Shown here: piece by piece, positions 49,001 through 52,000 of the stretch
Position numbering within the stretch: position 1 is the stretch's first letter
Layout: every line of letters begins with the position of its first letter
Source: Escherichia coli
Lineage (GTDB): Bacteria > Pseudomonadota > Gammaproteobacteria > Enterobacterales > Enterobacteriaceae
NCBI RefSeq assembly: GCF_002854065.1
Contig: NZ_CP024153.1
DNA length: 64,000 nucleotides
Strand: one strand, 5' to 3'
Position numbers: made by a program

Positions 49001-52000
49001 CGAAGTGATGTACCTGAAGAAAAAACGAAAGACCCTGTCGCGGAAAGCAGAACCGTGACGTTCTCCTTCCCGGCTGATCCCCTGCCCCGGGGTTCAGCCG
49101 GACGGCAGGAACAATATATTTAACCTCATGGCGCATAAAGTCATTTATATTTGCTCATGGCGCAATAATCCTCTCATCGCAACAATTACTCGTTTTTTGT
49201 GTCCATGCTGCAAAAATTCCTCTCTTCCTCTCCCGAGATCCGAAAAAAGGTAGTCCCGGATCTCTGCGAACCCCACCGGCGCGCAGCGGCCCGACAACAC
49301 AAGATGTAGCGGTGTTTCCAGCTGATAGTGACGCCATATGTTGTGTCCCTCTCCTGCCCCGTGACCCGGCGCGCAGCATCAGAAAACAGTGCTTCGCTTA
49401 CTTCCTGACCGTGATAAACTTCCGGAAACTTCGCTAAATGTGAAAAGTCGGATCTGCCGGAAACGGTCATTCGGTAATTTAACAGCGTTGCTATATGGCT
49501 GCTTATTATCAGTCAAAAAAATAATTACAGTATGGGAAATTCATCCAGGTGACAGATGCAGGATTGTGCTCAGCTAATTATACCTTGCGTCATAATTACA
49601 CTTAGTGACTATTTATTAGGAGGCTAAATGCACGCATCAATGGTTCATGTCTGGGAGTATCTGACACGTTGTGGTCATAAATTTCTATGGCTAAAAATTA
49701 ACCCTCTACCTCCAGGATATACCGGTTCGGTATACAGAGCGCAGTTTGAAATTTACAGCGCGTCGGGCCGTATTCTGGTCACGCTTGATGTGCACAGACA
49801 GCAATGGGTGTGTTCAGCAAACAATCCTCGCCGTGAACCTGCTGATAAAAACGGGGTCATGCTTGATAGCGGTATACCTCTGGATAGAAACCTCGCATCA
49901 CATTATGCAAAACAGGGGTACTGAATGAATCTAACCCTGGTACAAGCACTGGCAGATGCCTGGCGGGATTTCTCAATAAGGATCAAACATGGCTGACTGG
50001 TTTATTGCGACTGAGGGCGTGAAGGTGGTGAAGGACAGTGCCAGCCTGTGGCCGCAGATCGTTACGGCTATTTCCTCTGCCGGCGCAGCCCTGGTGGGTG
50101 TTGCTCTCACACACCGTTTTACCCGCAGGCGTGAAGAAGCTACTGCTGCACGTAAACGTTACGATGAATTGTACTTTATATCTACCGAGCTAGTTTTTCT
50201 GCTGGAGCGTTTTGCACAACGCTGTGTTTATTCTGCTAATGAATCAGGGGAATATGACCAAGATGGACGTATTAGGATTGAGTATTCTTTACCTGAAATC
50301 AATTTCGAGTCCATTACTGGGGACTGGCGTTCTCTGCCACCAGGATTGATGTACAGACTTGCTGAATTGCCAGTCATCTGCAGGGAAGCCGCGAGTTCTA
50401 TAAGTGCGGCGTTCAATGAAGATACTCCCTTCGATGGATCGTATGGAATTTTCGAACTTAACAGGCAGTCTGCAAGACTCGGATTAAAAGCAATACGTTT
50501 ATCCCGTTGGCTACGTCAGCTATGCGATATGCCTGGGGACAGGTTGTCTGACGACCGTTGGTCGGCATGGAGTGTTTTGTATCGGAAGCGCTGGGAGCAT
50601 ATTAGGAATAATAACAATGTTCACCGCCGATATAAACGGTTGCCTGATGTTACTGAGTAGATGGCTCAGGAGTTAGACTATGAATAATAATTTCCCGGCA
50701 GGTATCAGGGATAACACACGGAACACCTCGATGAATCTGCCAGTAGCCATCGATTACCCTGCCGCTCTCGCCCTGCGTCAGATGGCGCTCGTGCAGGATG
50801 AACTCCCGAAATACCTGCTGGCGCCGGAAGTCAGCGCCCTGCTCCATTACGTGCCGGATCTTCACCGCAAGATGCTGCTGGCGACGCTGTGGAACACCGG
50901 CGCGCGCATTAATGAAGCGCTCGCGCTGACCCGGGGGGATTTTTCGCTGGCGCCGCCGTATCCTTTCGTGCAGCTGGCCACGCTCAAGCAGCGCACCGAG
51001 AAAGCGGCCAGGACGGCAGGTCGTGCCCCCGCAGGCAGTCAGGTCCATCGTCTGGTTCCCCTTTCCGATCACCACTACGTCAGTCAGCTGCAGATGATGG
51101 TGGCCACCCTGAAAATTCCCCTCGAAAGACGAAACAAACGCACCGGCAGAATGGAGAAGGCGCGTATCTGGGAGATCACAGACCGAACCGTCCGCACCTG
51201 GCTTAGCGAAGCGGTGGAAGCCGCAGCGGCCGACGGGGTGACGTTCTCAGTACCGGTGACCCCCCATACGTTCCGTCACTCCTACGCGATGCACATGCTG
51301 TATGCCGGCATACCACTGAAGGTTTTGCAGAGCCTGATGGGCCACAAATCGATTAGCTCGACGGAAGTCTATACGAAGGTGTTTGCACTTGATGTTGCTG
51401 CGCGGCATCGAGTTCAGTTTCAGATGCCCGAAGCGGATGCGGTAGCCATGCTGAAAGGGAATATTTAAGTACTTAGGAGAATGATGCTGGCGAACGTCAT
51501 GCTCGCCGGTGAGGTCTGTCAGAAGTTATCTGGACCAGCTGACGGGAATATCTGCTCTGTATTCCTCATACTGCTCATAGATCGCATGCTGAAGCATCGT
51601 AATACGTTCTGACAACCTGTTGGCGTCCGACATATGCCGCCATTCCCCCTCAATAGTGGTTTTCTGTCCATCCGGGAGATTGAGCGTGATCAATACCTTT
51701 GTATCACGAATAATCACCCCGTCAGTGAAAGAATTAAGACCACTGAATCGCCACGGATAATCTAGACACTTCCGAGCCGTTGATAATACTGGTTTTCATA
51801 TTCTGTCGGTGACATCTGTTCGCTAGAACCATGCCGACGCTTACTGTTATAAAACATTTCGATGTAATCAAAAATATCACTGCGGGCTTCTTCCCGCGTT
51901 CCGTAGATCTTTTTCTTTATCCGTTCGCGTTTCAACAACTGGAAAAAGCTTTCTGCAACCGCATTATCATGGCAGTTACCGCGACGGCTCATGCTGCCCT

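Follow-up and report, generated by a model that had tools for sequence, protein, structure and literature searches.

Two small genes between an rfsF-type block and resD of an Escherichia coli plasmid: a possible conflict cassette in the position of ccdAB

The window analyzed here, a stretch of 64,000 nucleotides (nt) from Escherichia coli (contig NZ_CP024153.1 of assembly GCF_002854065.1), is a plasmid segment with a sil operon, a GGDEF gene and insertion sequences (IS), which bears out the plasmid origin assumed in a preliminary description of this DNA. Our subject is a gene pair, in the following called A (98 amino acids, aa) and B (223 aa), which lies directly upstream of the gene for a tyrosine recombinase (Table 1). 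As the recombinase is 92% identical to ResD of the F plasmid and as the block upstream of the gene pair is homologous to F, it is close to certain that we have here the rfsF-resD locus for multimer resolution of an F-like plasmid of enterobacteria, in which an rfsF/oriV-1-type block is followed by a variable cassette and then by resD. Genes A and B fill the position which ccdA and ccdB hold in F. We tentatively suggest that they constitute a swappable conflict cassette, for addiction or abortive infection, which would be co-transcribed with resD. This is the reading we prefer, although we regard it as a possibility and not as a settled matter.

The preliminary description had gone no further than to call the enzyme a tyrosine recombinase. 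We identify it here as ResD, with an rfsF/oriV-1-type region upstream. The identity to F ResD extends over residues 19-259, RsdB of plasmid pSLT is 89% identical, and the product matches the Pfam domain Phage_integrase with E = 7e-19. The catalytic residues R76, H196-x-x-R199, H222 and Y231 are legible in the translation, and the first approximately 18 residues are the sole part which differs between plasmids. Thus, the catalytic domain with its residues, the close identity to F ResD and the rfsF-type region adjoining the operon are all present, and by these features of its sequence the recombinase is a ResD enzyme, predicted to resolve plasmid multimers. Copies of resD are found in at least 5000 plasmid records, with about 88% as the lowest identity among the sampled matches.

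The non-coding block of about 270 bp can be aligned with F (locus L006) and with IncR, IncFIB, IncFII and IncFIA loci. It carries a palindrome AGATCCG-N14-CGGATCT at 49235-49264, a third copy of TCGGATCT (CGGATCT-type) at 49448-49455, and the repeats CTTCCGGAAAC/CTGCCGGAAAC at 49419-49429 and 49454-49464, the paired form of which is C(T/G)TCCGGAAAC. We presume that the palindrome and the repeats include the ResD target and its accessory sites, each of them being a candidate for the crossover site. In F, the RepFIA segment starts at nt 45922 with two rfsF sites and oriV-1 (PMC4398462), and the left edge of the conserved block coincides with this published nucleotide. Homology to F and to the other plasmids is lost just past GCTGCTTATTAT (about 49510) and is regained at GGCGGGATTTCTCA (49962) before the ribosome-binding site of B.

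Table 1. Features of the rfsF-resD locus in the window
Feature	Position	Strand	Remarks
Conserved non-coding block, homologous to the F rfsF/oriV-1 region upstream of ccdA	49235-49510	+	Alignment
Leader with presumed promoter region, specific to cassettes opening with an A-type gene	49511-49627	+	Conservation
Gene A, 98-aa basic (isoelectric point 9.3) soluble alpha/beta protein	49628-49924	+	AGGAGG 5 nt before ATG; conserved family
23-codon open reading frame (ORF), not a gene; intergenic sequence	49925-49996	+	Starts directly after the TGA of A; its TGA overlaps the ATG of B (ATGGCTGA)
Gene B, predicted 223-aa single-pass inner-membrane protein	49989-50660	+	AAGGA ribosome-binding site; homologues, AlphaFold2 (AF2) model
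resD, 262-aa tyrosine recombinase, plasmid multimer resolvase	50680-51468	+	Own AGGAG; identity to F ResD, Pfam Phage_integrase
63-aa ORF, 5'-truncated remnant of an 85-aa gene	51526-51717	-	phrog_31850, positions 24-85 of 85, E = 1e-43
Start of IS3-family insertion, transposase ORF 51762-52574	51745-52574	-	Pfam rve (E = 3.6e-33) and HTH_21; right boundary of the module

All five ORFs of the preliminary description (A, B, the recombinase, the 23-codon ORF and the 63-aa ORF) lie where it had placed them. Its view that A, B and the recombinase are a conserved co-oriented module also stands. Relatives of B occur in 2083 plasmid records, and at every locus that was sampled B was directly followed by a ResD-type gene or by a remnant of one. 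The stretch of 2.4 kb in which these ORFs lie has 100% identical copies in many plasmids of E. coli, Salmonella, Shigella and Klebsiella. Of 5426 complete E. coli genomes, 79 have the exact pair of A and B alleles, which is mostly plasmid-borne in them. The ORFs had further been described as a translationally coupled chain. The junctions are real, but for the window coupling is overstated because the 23-codon ORF is unsupported, gaps of 64 nt and 19 nt separate A from B and B from resD, and each of the three genes has a Shine-Dalgarno sequence of its own. An overlap of 4 nt between B and resD is frequent in the relatives. No terminator-like site and no Rfam element was found between A, B and resD, and an Rfam scan of 49000-51900 gave no match at all. 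For pSLT, reverse transcription PCR and blots of RsdB-FLAG demonstrated that cassette and rsdB belong to a single operon, for the expression of which the ccdAB promoter is largely responsible (PMC5065971). By analogy with this cassette-resolvase operon, A, B and resD most likely constitute a single operon as well.

Upstream of A the leader has the conserved elements GGTGACAGA, GTCATAATTAC and TAGTGACTATTT, followed by AGGAGG, and an inverted repeat TAATTAT-N10-ATAATTA (49575-49598) which overlaps a -10-like hexamer CATAAT. When six other loci are compared, the majority of them keep most of these elements (49540-49627), including loci in which the identity of A is down to 32-36%; locus L022 diverges.

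The slot between the rfsF block and resD is filled differently from plasmid to plasmid. It holds ccdA-ccdB in F and in L033 and ccdA-ccdB-PSLT029-PSLT030 in pSLT, whereas in some IncFIB/ColBM, IncR and IncFII plasmids a 116-aa helical protein precedes a B homologue. An A-type gene together with B is found in the window and in L004, L007, L010 (with a resD remnant only), L011, L020, L023 and L024. In L028 an A-type gene is followed by genes for a further small protein, for a protein of 334 aa and for a membrane peptide of 53 aa; the 334-aa protein has a hydrophobic C-terminal tail, read from the translation, and its Pfam matches are sub-threshold and of coiled-coil type. A plasmid similar to the virulence plasmid pLVPK (L029) encodes a protein of 273 aa which contains an RNDLVH motif and matches HEPN_RiboL-PSP below threshold (E = 0.014), and L031 has a 305-aa protein with a FitA-like ribbon-helix-helix (RHH) antitoxin domain (E = 1e-5). 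Thus F, pSLT, L028, L029, L031 and L033 have ResD without B, and at least half of the resD-carrying plasmids do so, if the number of resD records is compared with that of the records with a B relative. An additional gene of 114-115 aa sits between B and resD in L024 (4055-4399) and L025 (9734-10081). Upstream in L025 there is, in addition, a gene of 119 aa which weakly matches HamC/DUF3223 in PADLOC (E = 2e-4).

Gene A is a real gene. It is more than a chance ORF since it belongs to a family of proteins of about 100 aa in which the reading frame is kept intact down to about 15-35% identity, since its ratio of nonsynonymous to synonymous substitutions (dN/dS) is 0.4-0.7, against 0.07-0.11 for ResD, and since its AF2 model is confident, with a predicted local distance difference test score (pLDDT) of 86. 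The model consists of a helix, four strands and further helices. The family is small: an exhaustive profile search yielded just 27 representative clusters of proteins of about 100 aa, which share the motif V..L...GH.ELWL / GR.LA / W / LD. In most of the RefSeq and GenBank plasmid records which hold a 100% identical copy, A is not annotated (features "none").

Gene B, too, is more than a chance ORF, as 294 clusters of homologues, the 2083 plasmid records and an AF2 model with a pLDDT of 82.8 testify. The match covers at least 80% of the length of B in 1794 of the 2083 records. All named homologues are from Enterobacterales. A scan of species-representative genomes with the B profile recovered 6 loci, and since a search of a phage collection returned a single weak match, B is in practice not a phage gene family. 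The preliminary description could assign neither A nor B to a family. This holds for Pfam, where neither protein has one, but B can be assigned to the PADLOC model PDC-S67 (E = 8.1e-28, 95 bits, residues 30-212 on profile positions 3-187 of 203) and to phrog_33426. The PDC entries were obtained in a guilt-by-embedding screen, and their authors present them explicitly as untested candidates (Payne et al., bioRxiv 10.1101/2024.01.29.577857); neither the searched literature nor the supplements of that preprint mention PDC-S67, and six RefSeq protein accessions from the module gave no literature matches either.

According to the model, the N-terminal 17 residues of B are disordered and are followed by a long helix (residues 18-83), a beta-hairpin and three further helices. 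The first part of the long helix is the only hydrophobic segment, with a Kyte-Doolittle value of 1.64 over residues 23-42, and is flanked by two lysine or arginine residues before and seven just after it. The earlier proposal that B is membrane-anchored is thus supported by hydropathy and by the flanking charges. A hydrophobic segment followed by seven basic residues implies a predicted topology with a short N-terminal tail outside, a membrane helix at about residues 22-42 and, in the cytoplasm, a four-helix bundle with the beta-hairpin. In an alignment of 48 relatives, residues R48, E49, E73, G111-D112-W113-R114 and R176 are each conserved in 90% or more of the sequences, and all of these except E49 and D112 are strictly invariant. 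Structure prediction, which had been proposed as a check on A and B, has thus given confident models, yet no informative fold match.

Compared with its relatives the window has a ResD that is 81-98% identical in nine of ten loci (66% in L013), whereas B is only 28-53% identical and A or the 116-aa gene is variable. The synonymous sites of B are saturated; for ResD the synonymous divergence is 0.5-1.4. Within B the N-terminal 45 residues reassort relative to the rest of the protein, and between L002 and L003 the 116-aa gene is 97%, B 33% and ResD 90% identical. With their low identity beside a highly conserved ResD, their saturated synonymous sites and their reassortment, the B alleles look old and appear to have been shuffled by recombination between conserved flanks, that is, the rfsF block and the 5' end of B on the one side and resD on the other side.

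For the conflict cassette we envisage the following steps. A, B and resD would be transcribed together from the cassette-specific leader. B could be a membrane-anchored, toxin-like effector and A a small regulator or neutralizer of B. Upon plasmid loss or phage infection B might then damage the inner membrane or arrest growth. The plasmid would benefit as F does from ccdAB, namely by the removal of infected cells or of cells which lose or mis-segregate the plasmid. We count for this reading the identity of the locus, the match of B to the PDC-S67 candidate, the slot model, the operon precedent of pSLT, the defence genes on the left side of the locus and the divergence of B beside a conserved ResD.

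In the relatives, genes for defence or toxin-antitoxin systems are frequent just to the left of the rfsF block. They are pifA/pifC in F and L030, an anti-phage transmembrane ATPase in one locus, SMODS and S_4TM of a cyclic oligonucleotide-based anti-phage signalling system (CBASS) as well as Abi_2, an AAA ATPase and a UvrD helicase with vapBC, and a restriction enzyme with vapBC. In the window an ORF of 304 aa (46538-47452, minus strand) has the domain of an HNH endonuclease (Pfam E = 1e-5) and matches a PADLOC model of type IV methyl-directed restriction enzymes (E = 5.5e-7). Located about 1.8 kb left of the block, it is a candidate defence gene which fits the pattern of the other plasmids. 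The left-side genes support a conflict-gene setting. The gene directly left of the block in the window encodes a GGDEF diguanylate cyclase (48063-49058). The arrangement recurs on the pLVPK-like virulence plasmid of Klebsiella pneumoniae, where a GGDEF gene (L029, 1-521) has a resD operon about 0.9 kb downstream, and in pSLT the diguanylate cyclase/phosphodiesterase-like PSLT032 follows right after rsdB.

Several observations weigh against the conflict cassette. Searches with A and B in Pfam, NCBIfam and PDB sequences gave nothing significant (best E = 0.17) and hence no homology to type II toxin-antitoxin systems; with structure comparisons included, neither protein is connected by homology or by fold with a known toxin, a known antitoxin or a known effector of defence. 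The AF2 model of A is not of the RHH, helix-turn-helix, AbrB or Phd antitoxin type. The co-variation expected of a cognate toxin-antitoxin pair is not seen either, as the A and B alleles reassort: relative to the window, A is 36%, B 100% and ResD 98% identical in L023, and the corresponding values for L007 are 79%, 29% and 86%. Likewise a near-invariant 116-aa gene is paired with B alleles which are only 33-47% identical to one another. In L009, on the chromosome of Atlantibacter hermannii (about 7600-7990), the A-type gene has an in-frame stop although neither B (221 aa) nor the recombinase (276 aa) is interrupted, which argues weakly against a pair of toxicity and neutralization. Taken together, the reassorting alleles, the fold of A and the stop in L009 speak against a classical toxin-antitoxin pair. 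As to transcription, a scan upstream of A for a consensus sigma-70 promoter found no match, so that the leader is but a putative promoter. Furthermore, rfsF is a point of gene-set exchange and cointegration between IncR, IncI1 and IncF plasmids (PMC9412624; PMC8004404), and the defence association of B may therefore have arisen merely because B is linked to a hotspot of recombination. Finally, B was always found beside ResD or a ResD remnant, and defence genes that stand on their own are not usually linked so tightly.

This linkage leads to another explanation, in which B, perhaps with A, would assist ResD as an accessory factor, a membrane partner that localizes, times or regulates resolution, for example by tethering rfsF-ResD at the membrane or septum in a manner comparable to FtsK-XerCD. 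In 15 of the 16 loci surveyed first, B is directly followed by a ResD-type gene, and the sixteenth, a Pectobacterium island, keeps an N-terminal remnant of ResD; the frequent overlap of B and resD fits in here as well, as does the shortness of ResD, whose catalytic domain spans residues 45-234 without a long N-terminal domain. In addition, the alternative 116-aa gene has a weak match to Phage_int_SAM_4 (E = 0.027). We considered that this gene could be a detached core-binding domain of the recombinase and set this aside, as the match is the sole support, the gene is not in the window and F ResD works without it. However, the co-occurrence holds in one direction only: B is always found with ResD, but ResD is often found without B, as in the operons of F and pSLT, which contain neither A nor B. 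A partner of an enzyme conserved at 90% would also not be expected to be conserved at merely 28-50%, and the models of A and B have no DNA-binding fold. We therefore consider an accessory role unlikely. As nearly identical ResD proteins work behind ccdAB, an obligatory role of A or B in ResD catalysis in particular is unlikely. Where the preliminary description had offered either a resolution-linked module or a cargo or defence module, the latter is the better option.

The deep divergence of the B alleles between highly conserved flanks could also be explained by a nontoxic cassette for competition or self-recognition among plasmids, which would act in exclusion, in incompatibility or by limiting ResD-driven cointegration, the B alleles being under frequency-dependent selection. 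Entry-exclusion proteins are inner-membrane proteins, as B is predicted to be, and rfsF is documented as an exchange and cointegration point (see above). But the plasmids with the module include non-conjugative IncR plasmids as well as plasmids of differing mating-pair formation (MPF) types, MPF_F and MPF_I, the module lies outside the transfer regions, and A and B have no similarity to known exclusion proteins in Pfam or NCBIfam. We rate competition as improbable, marginally more so than the accessory role. That A and/or B are fast-decaying passenger ORFs between promoter and resD which have no current function is very improbable: the relatively high dN/dS of A, its frequent lack of annotation, the pseudogene in L009 and the missing family and fold matches would fit, but the coverage of B in most plasmid records, the confident models of both proteins, the invariant motifs of B across 48 diverse sequences and the open A-family frames down to about 15% identity would not.

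The conflict cassette invites comparison with several known systems. The rfsF/ccdA-ccdB-resD arrangement in RepFIA of F has the homologous block and recombinase and the same order of block, two-gene cassette and resD. It differs in that A and B share neither sequence nor fold with CcdA and CcdB, B being membrane-anchored and twice the size of CcdB, and in the first approximately 18 residues of ResD. In the pSLT operon ccdA-ccdB-PSLT029-PSLT030-rsdB-PSLT032 (PMC5065971) the resolvase gene is likewise on the 3' side of a polycistronic operon with the cassette genes 5' to it, but A and B have no relation to PSLT029 or PSLT030, and co-transcription is experimental in pSLT and by analogy in the window. 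PDC-S67, of which B matches 185 of the 203 model positions, is a single-gene phage-defence candidate, whereas the B of the window is never solitary, being preceded by a small gene within the resD operon. In the type IV toxin-antitoxin system CptA/CptB (YgfX/YgfY) a membrane toxin with two membrane helices is paired with a small soluble antitoxin encoded upstream. The order of a small soluble gene and a membrane-protein gene is the same, as an analogy only, for A and B have no similarity to any Pfam or NCBIfam family, and B has a single membrane helix where CptA has two.

The rfsF-resD system itself is already known, and PADLOC includes B among its untested candidates. In the searched literature we found neither the variable cassette bay nor the A family, and neither structural models of the two proteins nor the pattern of allele shuffling. 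A wider, and more doubtful, proposal would be that the gap between rfsF and resD is a dedicated cassette bay in thousands of enterobacterial plasmids, and that the small proteins of the A family are a shared front-end for unrelated effectors (the four-helix bundle of B, the HEPN-like protein and the protein with the C-terminal tail). This would amount to a new modular addiction or abortive-infection system wired to a dimer-resolution operon.

ResD-type resolvases reside on at least 5000 sequenced Enterobacterales plasmids, many of them with resistance or virulence genes, and about 2000 plasmids carry a B relative which is annotated merely as hypothetical. If A and B are an addiction or phage-exclusion cassette, they would be a widespread and unrecognized factor of plasmid maintenance or host protection with a new membrane-acting effector fold, and the rfsF-resD operon would be a predictable site for finding further conflict systems. 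If they have no such activity, the correct gene context is still established, with a false small ORF and a truncated remnant set aside, and the case would be a warning that the defence association of PDC-S67 may reflect linkage to a recombination hotspot.

The 23-codon ORF between A and B, which had been listed as a possible gene, does not hold up. It is open in the window and in L007 only, is stopped after 4 codons in L020 and is absent in L023, L004, L010 and L011. As it is not conserved, we also rejected it as a mediator of coupling. What is conserved inside it is the nucleotide motif GGCGGGATTTCTCA (49962-49975), which is kept in most relatives and is present also at loci with the unrelated 116-aa upstream gene.

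On the other side of resD the 63-aa ORF is present on the opposite strand as described, but it is an IS-truncated 3' remnant and not a whole gene. The intact 85-aa gene is convergent to resD in IncR and IncFIA plasmids, and the homology to these plasmids stops at about 51744, where the IS3-family element starts that truncates the gene. Match H1 has an extra IS3-family transposase feature inside the matched stretch. We considered the 63-aa ORF as a paralogue of B because of a BLAST match (E = 5e-4, on a tiny database), but rejected this as hhalign gave a probability of 3.5%. Between 51745 and 53702 two different transposase genes lie back to back, the second of which (52668-53702) has HTH_38 and rve domains.

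Further to the right, at 53882-54967, there is a tandem array with 29.4 copies of the 37-bp unit GGGCGGATTTCCACACGGCACCGGCGCCCGGCAAGGT (91% matches), which gives rise to long spurious ORFs in several frames. The start of the unit, GGGCGGATTTCC, resembles the conserved GGCGGGATTTCTC motif just upstream of B, which could conceivably reflect, for instance, a shared binding protein. Elsewhere in the window five ORFs of 240 aa with a TTG start are found at 3208-3930, 8633-9355, 18473-19195 (minus strand), 25322-26044 and 31338-32060. Most of them overlap an ORF of 219-259 aa on the other strand, and in all probability the five belong to copies of a single insertion sequence by which resistance segments are bounded.

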